DNA from: a virus
Lineage: Duplodnaviria > Heunggongvirae > Uroviricota > Caudoviricetes
Direction: 5' to 3' (one strand)
IMG/VR virus record: IMGVR_UViG_638341085_000012
Length of the DNA stretch: 42,309 bases
Shown here: positions 1 to 42,309 of the stretch, one piece after another
Position numbering within the stretch: the stretch's first letter is position 1
How the letters are laid out: every line of letters begins with the position of its first letter
Position numbers and translations under genes: made by a program
The notes under the pieces: generated by a model
Told to the model about the DNA's origin: nothing
What the model saw: only the letters and a program-made list of their open reading frames with translations
Databases searched by the model: none

Positions 1-1248
1 ATGGCACTGAATATTCCATTCAGAAATGCGTACTATCGTTTTGCATCCAGTTACTCATTTCTCTTTTTTATTTCCTGGTCGCTGTGGTGGTCGTTATACG
101 CTATTTGGCTGAAAGGACATCTAGGGTTGACAGGGACGGAATTAGGTACACTTTATTCGGTCAACCAGTTTACCAGCATTCTATTTATGATGTTCTACGG
201 CATCGTTCAGGATAAACTCGGTCTGAAGAAACCGCTCATCTGGTGTATGAGTTTCATCCTGGTCTTGACCGGACCGTTTATGATTTACGTTTATGAACCG
301 TTACTGCAAAGCAATTTTTCTGTAGGTCTAATTCTGGGGGCGCTCTTTTTTGGCCTGGGGTATCTGGCGGGATGCGGTTTGCTTGACAGCTTCACCGAAA
401 AAATGGCGCGAAATTTTCATTTCGAATATGGAACAGCGCGCGCCTGGGGATCTTTTGGCTATGCTATTGGCGCGTTCTTTGCCGGCATATTTTTTAGTAT
501 CAGTCCCCATATCAACTTCTGGTTGGTCTCGCTATTTGGCGCTGTATTTATGATGATCAACATGTGTTTTAAAGATAAGGATCACCAGTGCGTAGCGGCG
601 GATGCGGGAGGGGTAAAAAAAGAGGATTTTATCGCAGTTTTCAAGGATCGAAACTTCTGGGTTTTCGTCATATTTATTGTGGGGACGTGGTCTTTCTATA
701 ACATTTTTGATCAACAACTTTTTCCTGTCTTTTATGCAGGTTTATTCGAATCACACGATGTAGGAACGCGCCTGTATGGTTATCTCAACTCATTCCAGGT
801 GGTACTCGAAGCGCTATGCATGGCGATTATTCCTTTCTTTGTGAATCGGGTAGGGCCAAAAAATGCATTACTTATCGGTGTTGTGATTATGGCGTTGCGT
901 ATCCTTTCCTGCGCGCTGTTCGTTAACCCCTGGATTATTTCATTAGTGAAGCTGTTACATGCTATTGAGGTTCCACTTTGTGTCATATCCGTCTTCAAAT
1001 ACAGCGTGGCAAATTTTGATAAGCGCCTGTCGTCGACGATCTTTCTGATTGGTTTTCAAATTGCCAGTTCGCTTGGGATTGTGCTGCTTTCAACGCCGAC
1101 TGGGATACTCTTTGACCACGCAGGCTACCAGACAGTTTTCTTCGCAATTTCGGGTATTGTCTGCCTGATGTTGCTATTTGGCATTTTCTTCTTGAGTAAA
1201 AAACGCGAGCAAATAGTTATGGAAACGCCTGTACCTTCAGCAATATAG
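1..1248 (+). CDS. cscB: Sucrose:H+ symporter (LacY-family oligosaccharide permease), 415 aa, complete
   Basis: Full-length ORF from the first base; translation matches the CscB permease as I recall it (MALNIPFRNAYYRF...); 12-TM hydrophobic profile; csc locus is known to sit near argW in sucrose-positive E. coli. Confidence 0.85.
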   Translation: MALNIPFRNAYYRFASSYSFLFFISWSLWWSLYAIWLKGHLGLTGTELGTLYSVNQFTSILFMMFYGIVQDKLGLKKPLIWCMSFILVLTGPFMIYVYEPLLQSNFSVGLILGALFFGLGYLAGCGLLDSFTEKMARNFHFEYGTARAWGSFGYAIGAFFAGIFFSISPHINFWLVSLFGAVFMMINMCFKDKDHQCVAADAGGVKKEDFIAVFKDRNFWVFVIFIVGTWSFYNIFDQQLFPVFYAGLFESHDVGTRLYGYLNSFQVVLEALCMAIIPFFVNRVGPKNALLIGVVIMALRILSCALFVNPWIISLVKLLHAIEVPLCVISVFKYSVANFDKRLSSTIFLIGFQIASSLGIVLLSTPTGILFDHAGYQTVFFAISGIVCLMLLFGIFFLSKKREQIVMETPVPSAI

Positions 1249-2384: not shown

Positions 2385-2936
2385 TCAAAGTGGAGGCTCT
2401 GGTAGCGGCATCCAGTGTGACGGCTCACATACCCCCTCAACACCATTCATGTAAAAGAATTGAAATAACCCTTTACCTTTGTGAAACCCTACCATCTGCT
2501 CTTTTGTGTCTGAGCAATAAACCAAAACATCTTCTTCGCTTGGCATTCGCTCACTACAGCTTATCCAACCATCCGGAGTTACCGGAGAGTTGCCCGATGG
2601 CTCGTTCAACTTGCAAGTTTGGCTTACAGGTTCGGCTTCCAGTTCTGCTATGCGCTTTTTTGCTGCTTCCAGCTCGCCAAGCAGCGCCAAGACGGTAGCC
2701 GGATTGGCTGCGGCGATGAATTCAGCATTGGCCTGCTGTTCCATTTGGAAATCTTCATCGAAACCGCTTTCTGGATGCGCTCCTTCAATTCTGCAAATGG
2801 GAATATATCCAGCAACTTCACGATGAATTAGCGCATCATCACCATCAAATCGGCTCTCCCCATATTCGAGCGACCACTCACCACACGTTGCTTTTTCTGC
2901 CGCCTCACGCAGTGCCTGATAGTCAATCTTGCTCAC
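2385..2936 (-). CDS. Ead/Ea22-like early protein with DUF551-like C-terminus, 183 aa (GTG start)
   Basis: Reverse complement of 2936 downward reads GTG AGC AAG ATT GAC ([17 protein letters not shown]...) and ends TGA at 2385..2387; the plus strand has stops in this frame, so the + label in the ORF track is wrong; FIAAANPATVLALL motif. Confidence 0.6.
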   Translation of the reverse strand: MSKIDYQALREAAEKATCGEWSLEYGESRFDGDDALIHREVAGYIPICRIEGAHPESGFDEDFQMEQQANAEFIAAANPATVLALLGELEAAKKRIAELEAEPVSQTCKLNEPSGNSPVTPDGWISCSERMPSEEDVLVYCSDTKEQMVGFHKGKGLFQFFYMNGVEGVCEPSHWMPLPEPPL

Positions 2937-3406
2937 TGGTTGCCTCCCTTGCGAAGCTCTGCGACGAACTCGTTAAGTGATATGTAGCAATCTCCAAATG
3001 TTAACGAACCGCTCGACTGCATATGCTCCATAGCCATCTCCACGCCCTGCGCCCGTACTTCAGCCAGGAATGCGTCGGTGGCTGGGGTTTTGATTTCGTT
3101 AAGCGCATCACTGAATCCACCACGCTCCATACCTAGCTCTGCTTCGTAATCGGCATCGAATGCAGCGTCTTTGCAGAACTTCTTCATCCCCGCACTCTCC
3201 GCTGCCAGCGCCACGCACTTGGCCTCAAGGTTATCAATCGTGATTCCAGCAGAACGACACTCCCGCAACGCCGTTTCCAGTTTTGATTCAAGATCACCGA
3301 ACTTACGCACCAGATATTCAGCGTTTGTTTCGTTAACCTTTAAATCTCGTGGGATGCATTTACCTTTCAGAAAACCATCCATCTCAATTAGTGACATTTG
3401 TTTCAT
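2933..3406 (-). CDS. Hypothetical early-left protein, 157 aa
   Basis: ATG verified at 3406 on the minus strand; 4-bp overlap with the downstream gene; protein-like composition. Confidence 0.5.
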
Positions 3407-3567
3407 TTCTTCCCACTCCGCAACATCGCATTCAGATATTTGTTTTGATTCACTGATGGAAAAGAATTTCTCTTAAGTAATTCCTCTCTCGATGGCATTG
3501 GCTTTACGCGTTGGCGAATAATCATTTCTGCCGGAAGAATGCCGGGATTGTATGCAAGTCCTCTCAT
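3403..3567 (-). CDS. Hypothetical small protein, 54 aa
   Basis: ATG 10 nt after the upstream stop, with GAGGA SD overlapping that stop; start chosen over the longer 105-aa reading frame. Confidence 0.3.
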
Positions 3568-3577
3568 AGTAAATTCC

Positions 3578-3874
3578 TCAGTCATTACTGATAGCGCCAT
3601 AGCGTGAGCGGTAATTACGCAGGCGAGGGTCGATATATTCAGGGAAGTGGGTATATGTGGCTTTGCGGAATGGTCGGATTGATGTCTGGTAAATTCGCTC
3701 GCGTTCTTCTTTCTCTGCAAGCCATATACAATGGCGAAATTCCTTTTCCTCTTTCGTTTCCTGCGGTAGCGACATTATCCGGTTGTAGTTTTTCCTGAAT
3801 TTATCCAGCACCTCCGATACGGAATTGCCGGAACAGCGGCGCGCGTCATCCGCACCATACAGAGGCGCTGGCAT
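3578..3874 (-). CDS. Hypothetical early-left protein, 98 aa
   Basis: [16 protein letters not shown]...; sits between ssb and the downstream small ORF in the same leftward operon. Confidence 0.45.
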
Positions 3875-3887
3875 GATTTTCTCCTGA

Positions 3888-4403
3888 TTAAATTGCGTGA
3901 ATAGCGTGACGAGGGAAGGGGAGAGTTACTGGTGCAAAGGGTATATCGTCGTCAAAATCCATAGGTGGTTCGCTGTGATTCCCCTGCTGCTGAGGTTGCT
4001 GTCTTTGTTGCTGACCGTTATTTCGCTGAGGTGAAGACTGTTCATTGCCTCCTTGCTTGCCACCAAGCATTTGCATGGTTCCACCAACGCCTACGATAAC
4101 TTCGGTAGTGAACCGATCCTGTCCACTTTGATCCTGCCATTTTCTTGTCCGCAATTTGCCTTCAAGATAAACCTCTGAGCCTTTCCGCAGATACTCGCTG
4201 GCAATTTCTGCCAGTTTCCCGCTCATTACCACACGGTGCCACTCCGTCTGCTCCTTTTGCTCTCCAGTTTGCTTATCACGCCATTGTTCTGACGTAGCAA
4301 CTGTAAGGTTTGCAAATGCCGTTCCTGATGGTGAATATCTGATTTCTGGATCATGCCCAAGGCGACCAATAATGATCACCTTATTTACGCCTCTGCTTGC
4401 CAT
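3888..4403 (-). CDS. ssb: Single-stranded DNA-binding protein with a 15-residue extension after the DDDIPF motif
   Basis: N-terminal OB-fold sequence ([44 protein letters not shown]...), Gly/Gln-rich linker, ...[11 protein letters not shown] followed by [15 protein letters not shown] before the stop. Confidence 0.85.
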
Positions 4404-5111
4404 TTATGCCGCCTGTTTTAGCTCGTTAACTCTGATGTTCATTACCTGAACGCATTTAGCCTGCGCATCCTCATTGCCAGCCATTAATTGCCAGTCACGC
4501 TGATAACGCTCGATGAGTTTTTTCTTGTCAGTTTCTGTTGACGCATAATCGCTGAAGTCTTTCAGGATTTTCTCGCAGTCAACCGATGGAGATTTCTGGT
4601 TGGTACTTTCTGGTGATGGTTTGTTATCTGATGCTGGGATTGCCCATCCCGGCAGCGATGGAGGGAGCCAGTAAAATCCTGTTCCATCCTTGAGTTTTGC
4701 CCTGTGCCACCCCTGCTTTTTATCGAGAGATGTTTGTGCGAAACCTTCCTCAAGGTTATACAGATACCGACCGATTCCCCACTGAACGGCAGCGCGCTTC
4801 ATTGCACCGGAACGACCACCTTTGACGGCTTCTACCTGCGTGTTTTCAGCAGCATCCCATTTGGTTACCCATTCGGAATCAATCTTTATTGATATGCCGC
4901 ATTCAACGCCGCCGTTGTTGGGAATATCGCGGTATTCATTGCGCCATCCTGCTTTGCCGCAAACATCGTCCAGGCGTTTCATGATTGCCCGGTTCGTGAC
5001 ATAAGCCAGCACCATAGCCCACACTTTGCCATCGCGTGTTTTACCGCTTTGCTGTATTCGCCATTCGATATCTTCAGGGCTGAATGGCTCATCGAATTTA
5101 TTCAAATCCAT
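4404..5111 (-). CDS. Single-strand annealing recombinase (Erf/Rad52-like superfamily), 235 aa
   Basis: KRAAVQWGIGRYLY motif; immediately upstream of ssb in the early-left operon; GAGGTG SD. Confidence 0.6.
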   Translation of the reverse strand: MDLNKFDEPFSPEDIEWRIQQSGKTRDGKVWAMVLAYVTNRAIMKRLDDVCGKAGWRNEYRDIPNNGGVECGISIKIDSEWVTKWDAAENTQVEAVKGGRSGAMKRAAVQWGIGRYLYNLEEGFAQTSLDKKQGWHRAKLKDGTGFYWLPPSLPGWAIPASDNKPSPESTNQKSPSVDCEKILKDFSDYASTETDKKKLIERYQRDWQLMAGNEDAQAKCVQVMNIRVNELKQAA

Positions 5112-5198
5112 AATTCACCTCAGAATGGACACGGCCCAAGGAAATAACGCTGATTTAATACTTCAGTCTTTGCCGCATTTAAAAATACGCGAACACCT

Positions 5199-5369
5199 TC
5201 ACGATCTCCCTTCTGGCGATACATTAACGCCTGCTGCGTGTACATGCGTCTCTGTAACTTGCTCTCCTTCACTGTGGTTGCAAGTGACATGAATATCTCC
5301 TTCGTTACCGATTAATTCTTTCATCTGACGAATGAATTCTTCGTCTGACCAGTTATCCGTAAAACTCAT
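5199..5369 (-). CDS. Hypothetical protein, 56 aa
   Basis: ATG overlaps the kil stop (ATGA); AGGAA SD; MSFTDNWSDEEFIRQMKELIGNEGD... Confidence 0.4.
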   Translation of the reverse strand: MSFTDNWSDEEFIRQMKELIGNEGDIHVTCNHSEGEQVTETHVHAAGVNVSPEGRS

Positions 5370-5518
5370 TTCCTGCGATACCACGGAAGGTTGATAGCTG
5401 ATTTCATCGCTTTATTTGCTTCAAGCCACATTTTTGAATCACCAATAAATCGGGCTATTACTGCTTTGTTCTGTGCAGCACGAAGCATCTGGTGATTGAT
5501 GGCTATTTCATTGCGCAT
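5366..5518 (-). CDS. kil: Kil-like host cell-division inhibitor, 50 aa
   Basis: 50-aa ORF overlapping the end of cIII as in lambda; RFIGDSKMW motif resembles recalled lambda Kil (FIGDEKMF); below the 60-aa track cutoff. Confidence 0.5.
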   Translation of the reverse strand: MRNEIAINHQMLRAAQNKAVIARFIGDSKMWLEANKAMKSAINLPWYRRK

Positions 5519-5634
5519 AATAAGACCTCAAATCTTTTCCATCCGTCACGTAATTTACGGGTGATTCGTTCAAGTAAAGATTCATTTAATTGGAAGGCAC
5601 CCATGCGAGCGCCTCCCGCGATTGCGTAAATCAT
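5503..5634 (-). CDS. cIII: CIII (FtsH inhibitor, CII-stabilising), 43 aa
   Basis: MIYAIAGGARMGAFQLNESLLERITRKLRDGWKRF... carries the lambda CIII core ESLLERITRKLRDGWKR; AAGGAA SD 8 nt upstream. Confidence 0.7.
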   Translation of the reverse strand: MIYAIAGGARMGAFQLNESLLERITRKLRDGWKRFEVLLCAMK

Positions 5635-5658
5635 GGGTGGTTCCTTATGTTGGTTTTA

Positions 5659-6627
5659 TTAGTAGGTTATTTTTGTTGCGAATACTTCGCCTTTTACGAT
5701 GGCTGTTATGATATTTTTAGCAACATCTTCTGATGCGCCAACCTTGATAAGGTCAGCAAGTATTTTGTTATTTACTTCTTTCCGGTGAGCTTTATCCTTT
5801 GCTCTACGCTCTTCTTCGTCCTTGATTCTTTTTTCTTCTGCTATTCTGGCTTGCTCTTTTGCTTCAGCCTCGCGCCGGATTCGTTCAGCCTCCTCCTGTG
5901 CTTTTCGGCGTTCTGCTTCAATTGCCGCCTGCTTTTCTCTTTCAGCTCGTTCTGCTGCCTCTTTTGCTTCGCGCTGTGCTCGTTGCTCGGCTTCAATGCG
6001 TTCACGCTCTGCACGTTCCGCTGCGGCCTTAGCTTCTGCTTCTCGCCTTGCTGCTGCTTCAATTTCGGCTTTTGCCTTTGCTTCGGCTTCAGATCTGGCT
6101 TTCTCTTCAGCTTCTCTTTTTAAGCGTTCTTCATGCTCTCGCTTTTCCTGCTCCGCTTTGAGTCTTGCCTCTTCTCTTTGGCGGTCAAATTCGCGATCCA
6201 TCAAAATCGCTATTTCATGGTCAGACTCAATTTGCTTTGCGAGAGCTTCAGCTGCTGCCTTAGCTTCTTCTTCGGCTTTAATCCGCGCCTGCTCCTCCTC
6301 ATAATCAGTAAGAGGCTGGCGCGCCTTGGCTTTCAGTTCATCAAGGCGATCACGCACTGTCTTGCGGTTGGCATCAATTAGCTTTGGAATTTCCTTAAGT
6401 TCAGCAACAAGGTCTTTGCCAAGACCATCGAGATATGTTTTCGTCTGCGCAACTTTATACGCCAGAGAAGCGATCTCCTTTCTGCCCTTTGCCGTTGTGA
6501 TATCAGGCACAAAGGACATAACTTCACGTTCAACCTTTTGAAGGATTTCTTCAATCTGGTCGGCAGACTGAAATACAGTCATTGCATTTGCTTTTTCAAT
6601 AACAACTAAATCTGTTACTTCACTCAT
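5659..6627 (-). CDS. Hypothetical early protein with a long E/R/K/A-rich predicted single alpha-helix or coiled-coil region, 322 aa
   Basis: Globular N- and C-termini flanking ~180 residues of EAKR-type low complexity; ATG verified at 6627. Confidence 0.55.
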   Translation of the reverse strand: MSEVTDLVVIEKANAMTVFQSADQIEEILQKVEREVMSFVPDITTAKGRKEIASLAYKVAQTKTYLDGLGKDLVAELKEIPKLIDANRKTVRDRLDELKAKARQPLTDYEEEQARIKAEEEAKAAAEALAKQIESDHEIAILMDREFDRQREEARLKAEQEKREHEERLKREAEEKARSEAEAKAKAEIEAAARREAEAKAAAERAERERIEAEQRAQREAKEAAERAEREKQAAIEAERRKAQEEAERIRREAEAKEQARIAEEKRIKDEEERRAKDKAHRKEVNNKILADLIKVGASEDVAKNIITAIVKGEVFATKITY

Positions 6628-33021: not shown

Positions 33022-34410
33022 ATGGCTACTTGGCAAGGATCAAATGGCGGATTGTTGGCTGGTATCGGCGGCGTCAACTCAAACGCTCCGAGCGTAAATG
33101 ACATCGGCAATACGCTTCAGCTTATCAGGCAGAACAATGATATTGAGCGTTCAGGCGCTAACAATGTTGGGCTGACTGCTTTGCAAGGCCTTTCAGGTAT
33201 TGCGGGGGTGTTTCAGCAGGAAAAGCAGGCTCAGCGGCAGAAAGAATTTCAGCAGGCATACGCTAATGCTTATGCGTCTGGTGATCGCGGTGCTTTGCGT
33301 CAGTTGGCTACTCAATATCCAGACCAGATTGAATCCGTTCGTAAAGGCATGGGATTCATTGATGAAGACCAGCGCAATTCTATCGGCACCTTAGCGGCTG
33401 GCGCACGCCTTGCGGCCTCGTCTCCAGAAGCAATGCAATCATGGCTGCAAAACAACGCCAATGAGCTGGCGCGCGTCGGTGTTGACCCTAATAACGTTGC
33501 TCAGATGTATCAGCAGAATCCTTCAGGATTTGGTGAGTTTGTTGATCACCTTGGGATGGCTGCTCTTGGTCCTATTGATTACTTCAATGTTCAGGACAAG
33601 ATGGCAGGTCGTGAGATTGACCGAGGCAGGCTGGCAGAGACAATCCGCAGCAATCAGGCTGGCGAGGCGCTAACAGCACGAGGCCAGAACATCACGATGC
33701 GCGGTCAGGACTTATCTGCTTCTACTGCGAGACGCGGGCAGGATTTGGCAATGCAGCGAGCGTCAACAAGAGGAACCGCTGGGAATGATGAGCGTACAGT
33801 TCAGTTATCAGATGGCAGAACTGTAACGGTAGGCGGGAAACTTCACGGCGCTGGGGCTAATGCGTTCTACGAAGGCATCGACAACGAGGGGAATATGGTT
33901 CGCGTTCCTGCCAGTTCAATCGCAGCGCCTGCAACATCGTCTGCATCAGCACAAAACTATGCCATGAAGAAGGATATCGACGCGATCGCAAATGCAGATG
34001 CTTCTGCTCTCGATTTCATGACAGGAATGACCGGCGGCGCAGGTAACCCGGCAATTGGTGCTGATGTTCGCAGCCGATTAACAGGAAAAGAGCAGCGCCA
34101 GTTATATAACTCAGCACAACGTATTCAGGGCAGAATGCAGAATCAGGGTGTGGCGGCAGCAAGGGACATGGGTGCCAGTGGTATTAACACCGTTGCAGAA
34201 GCGAAGATGTATTTTCAGGGGATGCCGCAGGTTGACTATTCAAGTCCGGAGGCTATGCAGCAGTCGATTCGTGAAATTCAGGAATACACCAACAATTACA
34301 ACCAACAATATAACGTTAATGTTGGTAAATCTCAGCGGAAGCAATCTCAACCTGCACAGGTATCACAGCCAGCAGCCAGCAGTAACTTTTCTTCACTATG
34401 GGGTGATTAA
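33022..34410 (+). CDS. Ejection protein (P22 gp20-like), 462 aa
   Basis: Synteny and size. Confidence 0.6.
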
Positions 34411-36407
34411 TGGCTAAAGCATGGAAAGATGTTATCGCCTCTCCACAGTATCAGGCGTTAGCACCAGAACAAAAAGCGCAGGCTCAGGAGCAATACTTCA
34501 ATGAAGTCGTGGCCCCGCAAGCCGGAGAAAATGCAGAGCAGGCTAAGCAAGCTTTCTATGCTGCCTATCCATTGCCATCTGTGCAGCCAGTGGATACACA
34601 ACAACCAGTAGCACAGCAACAACCACAGCAAAGTGGATTTATGTCTGATCTTGGTGAAGCAGTAAAAGAGACTGGTCGTGGACTGGTGCAGGCTGGCGTG
34701 AACGTGGCAAACATACCTGCATCAGTTGCCGATGCTGTAACAAGCGCGGCGGCTTGGGCTGGCGGTAAACTCGGCATTGGCGATGGTACATATCAACCAG
34801 CGCCACGAGTAACAACGCAGGGATTAGAGCAGGACTTTGGCCTTCAGCAAGGTGCGCTGACTCCACAAACGACAGAGGGAAGGGTATTTGCTGAAGCATT
34901 GCCTTACCTCACTCCTGCTGGCGTTGAGAGAGCGGCGGTACAGGCACCAACACTTGCTGGTCGAATTGCTCAGGGGGCAACTCGCCTTCTCGCAGAAAAC
35001 GCAGTTGGATCACTTGCTGCAAACAGTATGAAAGATGATGCGGAAGCACTCGCTACCGATTTAGGCGTTGGTGTGCTGGCTGGCGGTGCTATTAACGCTG
35101 CCGGACGTGGATTAGGTGCTGCTTATCGTGGCGTTCGTGGTGCTATTGCGCCAGAAGCGCAGCAGGCTATCAGATTTGCAGAGCGTGAAGGAGTTCCTCT
35201 GCACACAACAGACCTGTTACAACCAACTTCCCGCGTCGGAAAAATGGCGCAGACTACAGCAGAAAATATCCCTCTGGCTGGAACAAGCGGAATGAGAGCA
35301 ACGCAACAGGAAGCGAGAAGCCAGTTGGTGCAGAGATTTGCCGATAAATTCGGTGAGTATGATCCAGCGGTTGTTATTGACAGCCTTAAAGCGAAAACAT
35401 CAGGAATTCGGCGTGCCGCCGGTAATCGACTGGAGCAGGTTCAGAATGCTATGGCTGGAGTAAACATTCAGCCTGCGCGAGCAATTCAGCAGATTGATAC
35501 TGAGATATCTAATCTGCAGAAGCTTGGTAAGGTGGCTGATAACGAGACTATTTCAAAACTTCAGTCCTATCGTGATGAGCTTGTTCGCAATGCTGGTCCT
35601 GATGGTCCGGTAAATCTGGATTTGAAGCAATTAAGCGATCTGCGCAGCCAGTTCAGAATGGACGTGAAGGGGGAACGACCAGTGTTACCAAACCGTTCCG
35701 ATGCTGCCATTCAGCGCGTTTACAAGGCAATGACAGACGATATCAATGGTGCCATTGGTCAGAATCTTGGCAACGATACTCTTCGTAAATATCAGCAGGC
35801 CAATGCCGTCTACGCTGACGAAGCGGCGAAACTAAAGAATACCAGGCTGAAGAATGTTCTCATGAAAGGCGACCTGACGCCGGAAGTTGTCAACAACATG
35901 CTATTCAGCAAGAACAAATCGGAAATTAAGACGCTGTATAACTCAGTTGGTCGTGTTGGCAGGGCGCAAATGCGCAATGGCATCATTGGAAAGGCGATGG
36001 AGAAATCAGGTGGTTCCCCTGACCAGTTCCTTCGACAGCTTAACACCCTGCAAAACCAGACTGGCATCACATTTAAGGGGCAGGACGCTGCTTATCTGAA
36101 AGGATTGAAAAATTACCTTCAGTCCACTCAGCAGGCAGCAAAAGCGGCAGTAACAACACCAACAGGGCAGCAAACCATCCCGTTCATTATCGGGTATGGG
36201 ACGGCAATGAACCCGGCGACAACTGGCGCAGCAGTAAGCTACGGACTTCTTACTCGCGCCTATGAGAGCGAATCATTCAGAAATGCAATGCTCCGAATGG
36301 CAAACACCCCACGCGGATCAACAGCGTTTGAGAAAGCCATGCAGCAGGCGCAGAAGGCCATTAACGCCCTGACTCAAGGTGCCAAGTCTGATGCGTTGTC
36401 AGAATAG
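34410..36407 (+). CDS. Ejection protein (P22 gp16-like), 665 aa
   Basis: Synteny and size. Confidence 0.6.
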   Translation: MAKAWKDVIASPQYQALAPEQKAQAQEQYFNEVVAPQAGENAEQAKQAFYAAYPLPSVQPVDTQQPVAQQQPQQSGFMSDLGEAVKETGRGLVQAGVNVANIPASVADAVTSAAAWAGGKLGIGDGTYQPAPRVTTQGLEQDFGLQQGALTPQTTEGRVFAEALPYLTPAGVERAAVQAPTLAGRIAQGATRLLAENAVGSLAANSMKDDAEALATDLGVGVLAGGAINAAGRGLGAAYRGVRGAIAPEAQQAIRFAEREGVPLHTTDLLQPTSRVGKMAQTTAENIPLAGTSGMRATQQEARSQLVQRFADKFGEYDPAVVIDSLKAKTSGIRRAAGNRLEQVQNAMAGVNIQPARAIQQIDTEISNLQKLGKVADNETISKLQSYRDELVRNAGPDGPVNLDLKQLSDLRSQFRMDVKGERPVLPNRSDAAIQRVYKAMTDDINGAIGQNLGNDTLRKYQQANAVYADEAAKLKNTRLKNVLMKGDLTPEVVNNMLFSKNKSEIKTLYNSVGRVGRAQMRNGIIGKAMEKSGGSPDQFLRQLNTLQNQTGITFKGQDAAYLKGLKNYLQSTQQAAKAAVTTPTGQQTIPFIIGYGTAMNPATTGAAVSYGLLTRAYESESFRNAMLRMANTPRGSTAFEKAMQQAQKAINALTQGAKSDALSE

Positions 36408-36497: not shown

Positions 36498-36983
36498 TTA
36501 TCTTATGTTACTGCTACTGTTGCATGTTACTGTATTCCCAAACCCTGAATTGCAGTTTGTGTAAGTGTCAACGCGTGTTGGATAGGGTTGAGTTATAACA
36601 GGCTGTCTCGCTTTTTGCTCGATCGCTTGCATTGTGTTTACAGCCTGATAATTCAATAAAGCCTGCTGGAATGCTTGGCTTTGCGCTATTTGTTGGGCTT
36701 GTTCTTGGCTTTGTAATTGAACATAAAGATTTTGAAGCTCAAGTCTTGCCTGTACGTCACTTATCTTACCTTCATCAACGCCTTGCCCGAGCATCTTTGC
36801 AGCAAGGACATACAGCTTAGGTGTTGGTGCAGATGCCATGCGTGAGTCGTTCTTCACACTGGCATCAAGGCAATTAGCCATATCGCTAAGCCTTTGATAG
36901 CGTTGTTCGCAACTTGCTTGATAGTCACTTACTTTTGCGCATCCAACCAGCAGAAGCGGGATAATTAACAGTGATTTTTTCAT
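36498..36983 (-). CDS. Lipoprotein of unknown function, 161 aa
   Basis: Signal peptide with lipobox MKKSLLIIPLLLVGC; AGGAG SD; downstream of mnt in the same orientation; Gln-rich C-terminal half. Confidence 0.6.
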   Translation of the reverse strand: MKKSLLIIPLLLVGCAKVSDYQASCEQRYQRLSDMANCLDASVKNDSRMASAPTPKLYVLAAKMLGQGVDEGKISDVQARLELQNLYVQLQSQEQAQQIAQSQAFQQALLNYQAVNTMQAIEQKARQPVITQPYPTRVDTYTNCNSGFGNTVTCNSSSNIR

Positions 36984-37053
36984 ATGGTTAACTCTCCTTA
37001 GTTTTTCACAGGATATCATGAAGGCAATGCCATTTTATCCGGAAACTAGATTT

Positions 37054-37353
37054 CTATGTTTCCTTTTTATTATTGCTATACATGGTCTTAAGCGTTTCAA
37101 AAACCATTTTCTTAACCATATCAGATTGTTGTTCTGCCATACGCTCTGCATCGTCAATGTAAACTGATGCAGAGCTTTGTTTATCCAATGATTCTTCAAT
37201 CGCTGCAATTATCTCTGAGTTCAGCGACCTGTTATTCATCTTCGCACGCTGCTTAATTTTCGCGTGGAGTTCATGCGGAAGTCTCAAGTGAAACTGCGCC
37301 TCGTCGTATTTGCTGTACATCCTTGATGCCTCACCAGTTGGGTGGAATGGCAT
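37054..37353 (-). CDS. mnt: Mnt-like ribbon-helix-helix repressor, 99 aa
   Basis: FHLRLPHELHAKIKQRAKMNNRSLNSEIIAAIEESL and C-terminal DDAERMAEQQSDMVKKMVFETLK resemble recalled P22 Mnt. Confidence 0.7.
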   Translation of the reverse strand: MPFHPTGEASRMYSKYDEAQFHLRLPHELHAKIKQRAKMNNRSLNSEIIAAIEESLDKQSSASVYIDDAERMAEQQSDMVKKMVFETLKTMYSNNKKET

Positions 37354-37441
37354 CGTAACTTACTGGATAAATACTCAATAGTACCATTTCGGTATGCAAT
37401 CACATCATGGTTGCATCATATCATTCGTCTGGAGCAATGAA

Positions 37442-39826
37442 ATGTCAGATATCACCGCAAATGTTGTGGTAAGCATGCCTTCTCAACTCTTCACTATGGC
37501 TCGTTCTTTTAAAGCGGTTGCCAATGGCAAAATTTATATCGGTAAAATTGACACTGACCCGGTAAATCCTGAAAACCAGATTCAGGTTTATGTGGAAAAC
37601 GAAGACGGTTCTCAAGTTCCTGTTTCTCAACCAATCATCATTAACGCTGCTGGTTATCCGGTATATAACGGACAGATTGCCAAATTCGTTACCGTGCAAG
37701 GCCATTCTATGGCTGTTTATGATGCATATGGTGCTAAGCAGTTCTATTTTCCTAATGTGCTGAAGTATGATCCATCATCAAAGTTTTCCTACCTTGATAT
37801 AAACTTATTAAATCTTTGGGATAAATACAGTAAACTTCCTGGATATAATTTAATTGGATATTTCAAACCAGGAGTAACAATAAATAACCCATGCGATGTT
37901 GTATTTCATCTTGATAGCGCAACCGTTTATAGATATACAGCAACCATACCGCACACCATAACCAGTGATGAAGAACCATCAGGATTTTGGCTGCCAGTAA
38001 AAGAAGGCATTGAAGCTGCATCTTCTGATGATATGACGAGGCTGATATCAGAGGGGCATTACATCATTGATAAAAATGCCGACTTTATCATTCCAGGACA
38101 AATAACCAACTCATATAATAGGGCGGATAGAAGTTTTTCTGATGGATATCAATATCGCTACGGCGGAATAAAACATCAGAAACAACCGTTCGGAGTTTTT
38201 GAAGATGCATGTGTTTTTACAGCAGTGGCTGCTACTCGTGAAGCTGAGCATTTCACTGGTATTTTAGGTGCTGGAACTGGGCAATCATTAGCGCAATATG
38301 GCAGTGTCGATACTTCAGCCACGTATTTCGAAAACACAGCATTACCTCCAGTATATACGATAACTGGCGCTACTTTTAACTCAACAGGGGCATCAGGCAT
38401 CAATATTGACACAAAAAAAATTAAGCTGAATATGGTTGCGGTAGTTATCGGAACATCACAAACATGGTTTGGTCTTATTCGCTCCTTTAATTCGTCAAGT
38501 ATCACTGTTGATGGGTGGTATGAAAAAACTTCAGGAACCTTGAGCATACCGTCAGGCACTCTTTATATCTCGCCAGTATATCGTGTATGGGGGAATAATA
38601 CTGTAGTAACAATTCCTGAAAATTCTTCTGCTTCATCTGCAGTTGGCATGGAGGTCATGCTTAATTTGTATAAGGATGGAAGTGGTATTGATAGTCAAGT
38701 TTATAAAGCGATAAATAATAATGCGTTTAATCCCGATGAGATTGTGGATAGCGCATACCAGGCGGTAGGTAAGTTTGGCAAGGCGCATGATGTCTGGCCT
38801 GGTTCGACATATTCTTATCGTTCATGGGGTGCTACATCATATGGGTTCTTCTCAGACCACGATCAGTCCGGTATCAAAATTCTAACCCCTAATGATGCCG
38901 CTTTTGTACTGGCATCACAGGTAGGGGGTGTCGGGGCGGAGACTAACGTGCTGATTATCGACCCCGCTGGAAGTATCATACAAACAAACCAGAAAGCGGT
39001 AAATGAAGTGGCTGCGCAGTTTGGGGCAAACGGAGCTTCTGGGGTGACAATACGTCAGCAGTCAGGTGGTGGAGCAAGTAACACAGACGCTGTTATGTAT
39101 GTTGGCGCGTCAACAGAGACAGGCAGAAGTATAAACTGCGCTGGAACTATTAACACTTCAGGTGCTGACTACGCGGAATACGTGGAAAAATCTGAAGCTT
39201 GTGGATGTATTTCACCTGGTGATATTTGTGGAATTAACTCAGCCGGGAAAATAACTGATAAATTTGATGATTCAATAAGATTCGTTATTAAGAGCACAGA
39301 ACCAAGCATGGTTGGAGGAGATACTTGGTCTTCTCTTGAACGCCCAAAATATCCAAGCGAAGAGTGGGTAGCCTGGGACAAAGCCATTCGTAAAAAAAAG
39401 CCAAACAAACCAGACAAAAAAATAATTAATAATCTGATTAAGGGTGGTGTTGATGAGGATGAAGCAAAAAAACAATATTCAAAAATGATGGAGTCATACC
39501 AAAAGGAACATGAGCTATGGTCAATAACTATTGATTCTCTAATGAAATCAGAACCTAGTAAAGAGAGCAAAGAATATAAGGAATGGTTGAGAAAAACAGA
39601 GGAAATTCGCAGAAATTTTGACAGAGTTGCTTTCTGTGGTCGAGTCCCTGTAAATGTTAAAGGAGGAAAGCCAGGAGATTATTTAATACCAATCAAGGGT
39701 GGCGATGGTAAGATAAGTGGTTGCTTTGTATCTAATCCAGATTTCAATCAATTTAAATTGTCAGTAGGCAGGGTTTGGAATGTTGATAATCATGGGTTGG
39801 TAACTGTTTCTGTATTAATGATCTAG
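37442..39826 (+). CDS. Tailspike protein: P22 gp9-type N-terminal particle-binding domain fused to an unrelated receptor-binding region, 794 aa
   Basis: First ~115 aa ([43 protein letters not shown]...[13 protein letters not shown]...VLKYDP) match the recalled P22 tailspike head-binding domain; GGAG SD before ATG 37442. Confidence 0.85.
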
Positions 39827-39907: not shown

Positions 39908-41065
39908 TTACTCCACCTTCCCATCAAGCCAGTCCGCCCACCACTGCATCATTTCTCTGCGCTTATCGAGATACTGAGCATGGTTGTAAATCCCACGCAC
40001 AGATCCGCCGTTGGCATGTGCCAGTTGCACTTCAATAGCGTCAGCAGGCCATTCGTGCTCGTTCATAATCGTGCTGAATTCATGCCTGAATCCGTGACCG
40101 CTTTCCAGACCTTCATAGCCGATTTGTTTGATCACAAGCAGTACAGCGTTCTCGCAAATTGGCTTCTTCTTATCGTTGCGCCCGGCAAAAACAAACTCTG
40201 ATACTGGTTTGGTGATTGAGCTTAGCGTAGTGAGAAGTTCAACTACCTGGTCTGACATAGGAACCACATGAATTTTGCGTCCCTTCATCACACTGGCGTC
40301 GATGGTGATAATCCTGTTTTCAAAATCGACGTTCTTCCATAGCATGGAACGAAGCTCTTTCGTTCTTAGGGCTGTGTAGCGTAAAACTTTGGTCGCAATG
40401 AGCGATACGATACTTCCTGAAAATGTTGCCAGTGCTTTGTTGAATGCCGGGATCTGGTCTGCAGGAAGAAACGGGAAGTTCTTCTTGCGGTATCCCTTCA
40501 TGGCGTCAGCAAGGTCAGGTGCCGGGTTATATTTAGCCCTACCAGTGACAATAGCGTAACGGAAAACCTCGCCGCATCTTCTGCGGGCTTTGTTGGCTCG
40601 CTCCATTGCACCTCGATCTTCAAATCTGCGGATTACTTCCAGCAGTTGCATCGGCTCAATATCCTGAATTTCAAGGCCGCCGATGATAGGTAAAATGTCG
40701 TCATCAAACATTTTTGCAAGTTCATTTGCATAGCCTACTGACCAGACTTGCTTCTTGTGCTCGTACCATTCCTTGTAAATGGCGCTAAAGGAATTGTTGT
40801 TAGACGAAGCCTTTTTCGCCTTTACCGGATCGATGCCAACCGAGATGTCTTTCCTCGCAGTCCATGCTTTATCCCTTGCCTCCTGCAAAGTAATAAGCGG
40901 ATATTTTCCGACGGTCAGGATTTTCTCCTTACCGTCAATCTTGTAGCGAAGCTGCCATACCTTTTTCCCTGACACAGGGACATAAAGGTACAGGCCATTA
41001 CCATCGAGTAGGCGGTATGGTTTTTCTTTCGGCTTTGCTGCTTCAATCTGCTTAACGGTGAGCAT
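39908..41065 (-). CDS. intS: Tyrosine integrase IntS (KplE1/CPS-53 type), 385 aa
   Basis: Matches recalled E. coli IntS from MLTVKQIEAAKPKEKPYRLLDGNGLYLYVP...; the ORF could extend 12 codons upstream to 41101; adjacent to argW. Confidence 0.9.
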   Translation of the reverse strand: MLTVKQIEAAKPKEKPYRLLDGNGLYLYVPVSGKKVWQLRYKIDGKEKILTVGKYPLITLQEARDKAWTARKDISVGIDPVKAKKASSNNNSFSAIYKEWYEHKKQVWSVGYANELAKMFDDDILPIIGGLEIQDIEPMQLLEVIRRFEDRGAMERANKARRRCGEVFRYAIVTGRAKYNPAPDLADAMKGYRKKNFPFLPADQIPAFNKALATFSGSIVSLIATKVLRYTALRTKELRSMLWKNVDFENRIITIDASVMKGRKIHVVPMSDQVVELLTTLSSITKPVSEFVFAGRNDKKKPICENAVLLVIKQIGYEGLESGHGFRHEFSTIMNEHEWPADAIEVQLAHANGGSVRGIYNHAQYLDKRREMMQWWADWLDGKVE

Positions 41066-41226
41066 GGGTAAAAATCCGGTGGGTAAAATTATTTTATCCA
41101 CTTTTTACCCGTCATGGAGTGCGGCTGTCAACGATCTGACGCGAACCATTACGAACTGTGAATCTACGGAAGGCTTGATATTCAGGGGATTTTGCGGACT
41201 GGTACGGATGGGAGCGAACTGATAAA

Positions 41227-41241
41227 TGGTGTCCCCTGCAG
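41227..41241. repeat. attL core: 15-bp direct repeat (3' end of argW)
   Basis: Identical to 1689..1703. Confidence 0.8.
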
Positions 41242-41301
41242 GAATCGAACCTGCAATTAGCCCTTAGGAGGGGCTCGTTATATCCATTTAACTAAGAGGA
41301 C
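41227..41301 (-). tRNA. argW: tRNA-Arg (anticodon CCU), 75 nt
   Basis: Reverse complement reads GTCCTCTTAGTTAAATGGATATAACGAGCCCCTCCTAAGGGCTAATTGCAGGTTCGATTCCTGCAGGGGACACCA. Confidence 0.9.
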
Positions 41302-41376
41302 AATGCGGCATGAGTATACCCGCTAATGGACTGCGGGGTAAGTACGCTGCCGCTCGATTGCTTAAACCCTCGCCAT

Positions 41377-42309
41377 TTATGCTGGGTTTTTATCATTTTT
41401 CTTAATGTTTTCCGCACGTTCTGCTTTTTGGCGTGCTTCTGCTTTACGCTTGTTGCTCATGTCGTTACGAATCTGTGCATGACTCATTAACGCGAAGATA
41501 AAGGTGCCGCCGCAGATGTTCCCCGCTAAAGTAGGTAGTGCGAAGGGCCAGATGAAATCGCTCCAGTGCAGCGTGCCGTTAAACACCAGATAGAGGATTT
41601 CAACAGAACCGACAACGATGTGGGTGGTGTCACCCAGTGCAATAAGCCAGGTCATCAATATAATCACCACAATCTTTGCCGCACCCGCAGCAGGAAACAT
41701 CCAAACCATAGTGGCGATCAGCCAGCCGGAAATGATCGCGTTGGCAAACATCTCGCTGGGGGTGTTCTTCATCACATCCATGCCGATTTTGACAAATGCA
41801 TCGCGAGTTTCTTCATTGAAGATAGGCATATATTCAAATGCCCATGCAGCAATACCTGTCCCGAGAATATTACCCAGCAGCACGACGCCCCATAATCGCA
41901 TAAGTAAGCCGACGTTGCTCATTGTCGGTTTTTGCATGACGGGTAGTACCGCAGTCACGGTGTTTTCGGTAAATAATTGCTGGCGGGCCATAATGACGAT
42001 AATAAAACCAAAGGTATAACCGAGATTCTCCAGTAAGAAGCTGCCTGGCACTCCTTCCAGTTCGACATGAAATATCCCTTTTGCCAGTAGCGAAGCGCCC
42101 ATCGACAGACCCGCCGCAATGGCTGACCACAGTAGCGCCATTGCGTCGCGTTCCAGCTCTTTTTCACCATCCTGGCGGATATGCTCATGAATTGCCATCG
42201 CCCGGGAGGGGAGTCGGTCTTCATCTATTTCTATTTTTTTGCCGCGCTCTTTTTCTTCGCTCTCAACTTCAATTTCGTCGCTGTGTTGATCAATTTTGTC
42301 GTTGTCCAT
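41377..42309 (-). CDS. yfdC: Formate/nitrite transporter family inner-membrane protein YfdC, 310 aa, complete
   Basis: MDNDKIDQHSDEIEVESEEKERGKKIEIDEDRLP... matches recalled E. coli YfdC; start codon at the last bases of the window. Confidence 0.85.
   Translation of the reverse strand: MDNDKIDQHSDEIEVESEEKERGKKIEIDEDRLPSRAMAIHEHIRQDGEKELERDAMALLWSAIAAGLSMGASLLAKGIFHVELEGVPGSFLLENLGYTFGFIIVIMARQQLFTENTVTAVLPVMQKPTMSNVGLLMRLWGVVLLGNILGTGIAAWAFEYMPIFNEETRDAFVKIGMDVMKNTPSEMFANAIISGWLIATMVWMFPAAGAAKIVVIILMTWLIALGDTTHIVVGSVEILYLVFNGTLHWSDFIWPFALPTLAGNICGGTFIFALMSHAQIRNDMSNKRKAEARQKAERAENIKKNDKNPA

Follow-up and report, generated by a model that had tools for sequence, protein, structure and literature searches.

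A P22-like tailspike from an Escherichia coli B7A prophage with a probable divergent phi29 gp12-type auto-chaperone at its C-terminus

Relationship of the C-terminal module to the phi29 gp12 auto-chaperone

The window analysed here (IMG/VR record IMGVR_UViG_638341085_000012; 42,309 nt) holds a P22-like prophage whose last late gene, an intact open reading frame (ORF) at 37442..39826 on the + strand, encodes a tailspike of 794 amino acids (aa). This protein is probably a mosaic homotrimeric tailspike of the P22 type that combines a rare receptor-binding body with a divergent phi29 gp12-type auto-chaperone at aa 576-794, for which self-cleavage is predicted. The principle of a C-terminal auto-chaperone was already known and is unchanged by these data; what they add is a divergent clade of such a chaperone, so far without annotation, attached to a rare receptor-binding body.

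Profile-profile comparison supported the C-terminal module as a distant homologue of the phi29 gp12 Peptidase_G2 auto-chaperone. The trimmed alignment of the module family was compared using hhalign with an alignment of 13 G2 sequences (phi29, Nf, SPbeta-like, phi105, two Staphylococcus phages, Carin-1, P-SSP10, S-SM2 and four database proteins), which gave a probability of 92.2% and an E-value of 5.8e-7 over 135 columns covering both lobes of the domain. The score was 48.8, compared with 19.2 for the reversed template and 25.9 for the best of 20 column shuffles. In this alignment, GADYAEY of the family fell on the G2 motif, while VDRIAFxGQVPVNV..GDYI.P fell on EWxxVGLxGQxxVRI..GDxI.P and, in phi29 itself, stood opposite EWHVVGLLGQIAVRI..GHGI. 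Residues 560-575 of the tailspike were placed directly ahead of Ser691 of phi29 gp12 and the N-lobe on residues 692-740, with D576-Y-A-E579-Y of the window protein aligned to D692-F-A-E695.

The cleavage of phi29 gp12 is fixed at S691-D692 by the chain boundaries of its PDB entries: S691 is the last residue of the mature form (3gq7), D692 of S-DFAEYFE is the first of the released fragment (3gqh), and the uncleaved form (3suc) bears the substitution E695Q. The same motif occurred in other canonical G2 proteins, as GADYAEYFE in cyanophage S-SM2 and as YADYAEYFE in Dpo31 of the Cobetia marina podovirus Carin-1. Dpo31 (PDB 28lx, 28nb) resembles the window protein in being the tailspike of a podovirus of a Gram-negative host in which a depolymerase body is followed by a G2-type chaperone at the C-terminus; its D4 domain begins at Asp664 of YA-DYAEYFE and is missing from the purified protein (PMC13317679).

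The module and the D4 domain of phi29 gp12 (PF11962; 3gqh, 3suc) both occupy the very C-terminal end of a trimeric spike, both carry a D-[YF]-A-E-[YF] motif at the cleavage site (a predicted site in the window protein), and both have a second block in the C-lobe, R..W/D..G.GQ..V....GD.I.P. They differ in the consensus of the N-lobe and of the C-lobe, and in what separates the two lobes, namely an 84-residue Lys/Glu-rich helical insertion in the window module and a loop of about 45 residues in phi29. ATP binding has been described for phi29 D4.

Several observations weigh against this assignment. Neither Pfam PF11962 nor the NCBIfam models matched the tailspike or its aa 554-794 even at E <= 10, and the hidden Markov model of the family matched none of the PDB chains at E <= 10. 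A Foldseek search of the C-terminal model against the PDB gave nothing significant, with phi29 gp12 outside the top 50, and hhalign against phi29 alone gave a probability of only 2%. Moreover, the structure of the C-terminal module is a monomer prediction only, and the AlphaFold2 (AF2) model of the distal half of the central domain is of moderate confidence, with hardly any secondary structure assigned. The hhalign probability rose with the diversity of the G2 template, from 2% for phi29 alone to 61% with 10 close sequences and 92% with the 13 diverse ones, and 15 of the 79 family members gave sub-threshold matches to Pfam Peptidase_G2 (best E 0.0015). The top Foldseek entries (MacA/EmrA adaptors and MoeA) were not significant and were taken as analogies, the common feature being a helical hairpin inserted into a beta domain; a weak PDB match to 2mc8 (E 0.04) and matches to PTCRA, DUF6306 and HyoA were dismissed as chance.

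Architecture of the C-terminal module

According to the AF2 model of the C-terminal fragment (predicted local distance difference test, pLDDT, 86), which consisted of three strands, four helices (aa 640-723) and seven strands, aa 576-794 form one bipartite domain in which a beta N-lobe and a beta C-lobe are separated by an 84-residue helical insertion. The G2-like N-lobe (aa 576-639; 39167..39358, + strand) comprised strands 24-29, 41-44 and 59-65 in fragment numbering (pLDDT 86-98) and showed the conserved pattern K..G.I.KGDI.G...GKLT..F..A.SF.VKST.PS.VGGD.W. The G2-like C-lobe, with the stop codon (aa 724-794; 39611..39826, + strand), comprised the strands of fragment residues 172-237 (pLDDT 90-98), and R..VDR.AF.G..P.N was invariant within it among 79 sequences. 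At the level of the family alignment, the first conserved block included G.I.KGDI.G...GKLT..F.DA.SFV.KSTDPSYVGGDTW and the second R..VDRIAFSGQVPVNV.GA.GDYI.P....G.I.G, and between them lay a stretch of highly variable length that corresponds, in the window protein, to the Lys/Glu-rich segment.

This insertion (aa 640-723; 39359..39610, + strand) was modelled as four helices (fragment residues 86-97, 106-113, 118-149 and 156-169; pLDDT 81-97). Its GC content (33%) is in line with its Lys codons. It was cut down to about 7 residues in P0130 and P0131, two close relatives of the tailspike, and its identity to the window protein was 35-40% in most close relatives and 66% in P0124/P0129. Sequence alignment places it at a site where canonical G2 domains vary in length too. 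The length after the motif was 219 aa in the window protein. Among metagenomic relatives it ranged over 125-212 aa; most IMG/VR loci had 157-276 aa, and a single ORF there had 84. The phi29 domain has "tentacles" that extend up the shaft, as PMC3357383 puts it, and one could speculate that the insertion is the counterpart of such an arm reaching along the stalk, or else a coiled-coil clamp.

These results revise what a first-pass annotation, made from the sequence alone, had said of the C-terminus. It had described an unusual basic, Lys-rich stretch followed by a separate small terminal domain. A Lys-rich run does exist at aa 651-660, but the surrounding 84 residues contain 13 E alongside 17 K, for a net charge of +2, and are thus of mixed charge and not simply basic; nor is there a separate domain behind them, as the run lies inside the insertion, within a domain that already starts at aa 576 and resumes with the C-lobe (RVAFCGRV at aa 728). 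The same annotation had suggested an autoproteolytic intramolecular chaperone of the kind seen in endosialidases and some tail fibres. The G2 homology and the motif agree with this in kind, but the family indicated is that of phi29 G2 and not the endosialidase family Peptidase_S74.

Predicted self-cleavage and alternative roles of the module

The predicted autocleavage site is Ala575-Asp576, with Glu579 as the putative catalytic residue (39164..39178, + strand), within the G-A-D-Y-A-E-Y motif at aa 574-580. In this motif, G, D, Y, A, E and Y were invariant in all 79 family sequences. The segment immediately upstream, which would form the C-terminal end of the mature spike (aa 560-575; 39119..39166, + strand), was also strongly conserved in the alignment of 79, its R, S, I, N, G, T, N, A, S and G being invariant or at least 90% conserved.

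Residues 1-112 attach the spike to the tail hub, as the corresponding domains of P22 and Sf6 do. In the proposed mechanism, the C-terminal module would fold and trimerise first and bring the three chains into register, which would allow folding of the intertwined distal part. The module would next remove itself by hydrolysing the Ala575-Asp576 bond, with Glu579 acting as the catalytic carboxylate. The expected products of the 86.5 kDa chain are a mature spike of 575 residues (61.8 kDa) and a released fragment of 219 residues (24.8 kDa), which would begin with DYAEYVEK and be absent from virions.

A module related to G2 might instead assist trimerisation and stay uncleaved as a distal cap, in the manner of the C-terminal domain that the P22 tailspike retains and that has an auto-chaperone-like function (PMC3357383). 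The divergence of the window clade, too large for the Pfam model, and the long helical insertion, which with its pLDDT of 81-97 might serve a purpose in the virion, would both fit such a cap. However, the Asp of the scissile site, the Glu equivalent to phi29 E695 and the flanking G, Y, A and Y do not vary among the 79 sequences, which is hard to explain without chemistry, and the motif is the same as in Dpo31, whose D4 is lost upon expression. An uncleaved cap is hence considered unlikely. Shedding of a 25 kDa fragment, as predicted for the window spike, would set it apart from the spikes of P22 and Sf6, which retain their C-terminal domains.

It is more improbable still that the module is a distal knob binding a receptor or carbohydrate, whose likeness to G2 would reflect a shared small beta fold without a shared function. 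The tip that contacts the receptor should vary with the host, yet the module is 33-42% identical across hundreds of proteins of aquatic, soil and enteric phages with unrelated upstream parts; in addition, the profile-profile match spans both lobes and the catalytic motif, with clean controls.

The least credible of the alternatives, and a very remote one, is a chaperone of the endosialidase / tail-fibre type (Peptidase_S74), whose chemistry is that of a Ser-Lys dyad. The position of the module at the C-terminus of a tailspike fits this type, 14 distant relatives of the central domain do carry Peptidase_S74, and the P22-like phage CUS-3 has an endosialidase tailspike. Peptidase_S74 (PF13884) nevertheless gave no signal in the module even at E <= 10, nor any Foldseek fold match, and was rejected. 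The Peptidase_S74 chaperones (K1F endosialidase, T5 pb1, CUS-3 tailspike) follow the same logic as that proposed here, in which a C-terminal domain trimerises, templates folding and is then cut off (PMC3357383), but they belong to another family with another chemistry and match the window module in neither sequence nor fold.

An auto-chaperone of the phi29 gp12 type would have practical consequences, as the predicted end of the mature tailspike at Ala575 matters for expressing, crystallising and engineering such spikes as depolymerases or diagnostic reagents. If the prediction is true, constructs truncated ahead of the module should aggregate, and any tag placed at the C-terminus would be cut off together with it. 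The phi29 and K1F spikes do aggregate when made without their C-terminal domains (PMC3357383). P22-like tailspikes would then be able to use a phi29-type chaperone besides the endosialidase type.

Central receptor-binding domain

Residues ~205-559 (38054..39118, + strand) form the central receptor-binding domain, which is presumed to be a depolymerase. The one relative with a solved structure was PDB 24qj, the tailspike depolymerase gp83 of Acinetobacter phage Solidus (released 2026-03-25), matched by phmmer over about 150 residues (aa 269-421, E 1e-11). With the AF2 model of aa 113-573 as a query, Foldseek returned 24qj as its sole match below 1e-3 (E 6.3e-14, probability 1.00, 415 columns). 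The two domains are thus alike in sequence and fold, yet the identity in the structural alignment was 15% and the template modelling (TM) score 0.48. Apart from 24qj, direct searches with aa 113-794 against Pfam, NCBIfam and the PDB sequences found nothing. No publication describing Solidus gp83 was found, which precludes inferring the substrate and mechanism of the window tailspike from it.

Relatives of aa 113-573 were rare: among 1.84 billion, 80 representatives reached E <= 1e-3, of which 3 also reached E <= 1e-30. In an alignment of 77 central-domain relatives, Glu404 (E292 of the fragment) was invariant and Asp290 nearly so, making these two residues candidate catalytic carboxylates. The domain most likely binds and cuts a surface polysaccharide, presumably the O-antigen of the host; E. 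coli B7A has the serotype O148:H28. The ends of these 77 relatives were diverse: 14 had a C-terminal Peptidase_S74, 8 an N-terminal Tail_spike_N, 4 began with Head_binding and 1 with a T7 tail-fibre N-domain, and 7 contained a pectate-lyase-like segment. Since its relatives pair it with varied N- and C-terminal modules, the central domain is regarded as a mobile receptor-binding body, found with either chaperone type and with at least 3 kinds of N-terminal adaptor.

The model of the central fragment had a pLDDT of 76 overall and 97-98 in the core (aa ~302-372). Just before the predicted cleavage site, in aa ~483-575 (38888..39166), the pLDDT of the AF2 monomer dropped to 44-68, almost without secondary structure. 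This stretch may be an intertwined trimeric stalk, and the modest confidence across the distal half of the domain would suit strands that pair between the chains of the trimer.

N-terminal domain and mosaic structure of the tailspike

The first 112 residues (37442..37777, + strand) form a particle (tail-hub) binding domain of the P22 gp9 / Sf6 gp14 type. Pfam Head_binding (PF09008) matched aa 1-112 over profile positions 1-112 of 113 (E 1.3e-65), and PDB sequence matches included Sf6 gp14 (7sg7, E 2e-61) and chains of P22 and HK620 type (E 1e-43 to 1e-48). The likeness to the P22, Sf6 and HK620 spikes in the PDB ended at aa 113-130, the P22 chains ending at aa 113, and the P22 endorhamnosidase was not among the Foldseek results for the aa 113-573 model. 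The two statements of the first-pass annotation on this point, a P22 gp9-type domain up to residue ~115 and no resemblance to the P22 endorhamnosidase thereafter, were thereby borne out. P22 gp9, Sf6 gp14 and HK620 gp9 share with the window tailspike the head-binding domain at aa 1-112 and the place of the gene, which follows the ejection-protein genes and a remnant of immI and precedes the integrase gene, but their receptor-binding bodies are unrelated to its own.

Downstream of the head-binding domain lies a neck helix followed by a small beta domain (aa 113-204; 37778..38053, + strand), which is nearly unchanged in a subset of E. coli P22-like tailspikes. AF2 modelled it as a helix (8-19), strands (24-73) and a second helix (83-91, all in fragment numbering) with a pLDDT of 84-92. 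Residues 114-200 were 97% identical to P0122, P0124 and P0126, with lower identity beyond them. Weak Foldseek matches of about 100 residues linked the aa 113-573 model to CBA120 TSP1/3/4, and phrog_8280 covered aa 1-354 of the tailspike.

Base composition had been used in the first-pass annotation as an argument for a swap at residue 115, the DNA beyond it being described as much more AT-rich. That argument does not hold, as aa 1-113 had a GC content of 41.0% and aa 114-794 one of 40.4%, with no step at residue 115. What remains of it is that the entire gene is AT-rich relative to the window (GC 47.0%) and to the upstream ejection-protein gene (51%). Within the gene, the GC content was 38.7% for aa 114-354, 44.8% for aa 355-608 and 36.6% for aa 609-794.

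The proposed exchange of the receptor-binding region itself fared better, although with more than one joint. The close relatives of the tailspike (P0121-P0133, 44-87% identity) had its whole architecture in common, and in P0123, P0127 and P0133, Tail_spike_N (PF18668) replaced Head_binding before the same central and C-terminal parts. The chimeric nature of the window tailspike is supported because these same parts sit behind another N-terminal adaptor and because distant relatives of the central domain carry other end modules. Identity to P0124 and P0126 was 94-97% over aa 1-200, then 45-52% over aa 201-480, 64-84% over aa 574-640, 37-66% over aa 641-726 and 55% over aa 727-794. At the nucleotide level, megablast aligned nt 1-1826 of the gene at ~85% in three complete E. 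coli genomes, the remainder being below the reach of megablast, and only nt 1-741 (94%) in one further complete genome. As judged from these alignments, the mosaic has several joints and not a single one near residue 115.

The window tailspike was identical to EDV64181.1 / WP_001296871.1, annotated as "tail spike protein [Escherichia coli B7A]". It belongs to a 90% cluster of 31 members, to which P0122, with 90, is a sister cluster. A full-length copy of the gene was detected by megablast neither among 5,426 complete E. coli genomes nor among 50,697 phage records.

Distribution of the module

A search with aa 555-794 returned at least 314 metagenomic proteins with 33-42% identity over the full 240 residues; this number is a lower bound biased towards short proteins, as the search returned only proteins of <=419 aa and missed the 794-aa cluster of the query itself, which was recovered by a separate search with aa 113-573. 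None of the 120 listed metagenomic homologues of the module had a Pfam domain, and the NCBI names of module proteins were "hypothetical" or "head-binding domain-containing". In PHROG, the sole match for the module was the PHROG that matched the window tailspike over its full length. The assignment to the G2 auto-chaperones thus offers a label for a protein module that the databases leave blank.

At least 281 IMG/VR contigs encoded the module. Where the motif was found (75 loci), the module ended the ORF in 74 cases, the remaining ORF running off its contig, and it was preceded by 152-892 aa. The two module loci that were inspected lay in phage structural or lysis regions. Among 50,697 records of cultured phages, only three had the module (Aeromonas PhAER-1 and PhAER-2, and Vibrio 1.023.O); canonical G2 domains occurred in 131 phage records, chiefly of Bacillus and Staphylococcus phages. 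It is conceivable, if rather doubtful, that the GADYAEY...VDRIAF module constitutes a distinct and undescribed sister family of G2 auto-chaperones, found across hundreds of phage tail fibres, mostly from water and soil, and missed by Pfam, NCBIfam and PHROG. Its lineage-specific helical insertion would then serve as a coiled-coil clamp for trimerisation or endow the freed 25 kDa fragment with a second function.

In the record of Aeromonas phage PhAER-1 (PQ495738), about 3 kb without any annotated gene (~2816-5799) held a homologue of the module (5001-5648; 39.6% identity by tblastn). A large tail fibre or tailspike gene seems to have been missed in this record.

Genomic context of the tailspike gene

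The prophage is P22-like and integrated at tRNA-Arg(CCT) in E. coli B7A. A GGAG sequence at 37431-37434 precedes the ATG of the tailspike gene at 37442 by 7 nt. A longer frame starting at 37394 is possible; the ATG at 37442 was preferred because of the GGAG spacing and because MSDITANVV is the usual start of P22-type tailspikes.

Upstream (5') of the tailspike gene lies an ejection-protein-like gene (34410-36407), followed by two small ORFs on the - strand. The first (36498..37019) encodes 173 aa without a Pfam match; an internal stretch near its start, MKKSLLIIPLLLVGCAKV, resembles a lipoprotein signal peptide with a lipobox. This lipoprotein-like ORF sits between the late operon and the tailspike, a position at which morons have been noted in P22-like phages (PMC2629481), and may itself be an inserted moron. 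The second (37054..37353) encodes a 99-aa protein of the Arc/Mnt repressor type (Pfam Arc, E 1.2e-14; Repressor_Mnt, E 3.9e-12). It looks like a ribbon-helix-helix repressor similar to Mnt. In its place between the tailspike and the ejection-protein gene, it is apparently what remains of the P22 immI region, and no obvious antirepressor gene was found beside it.

Downstream of the tailspike gene, the right end of the prophage comprises a tyrosine integrase gene (39908-41101, - strand), the tRNA-Arg(CCT) gene (41227-41301) and a formate/nitrite-transporter gene (within 39908..42309). At the left edge of the window is a gene for a LacY-family permease (within 1..1248).

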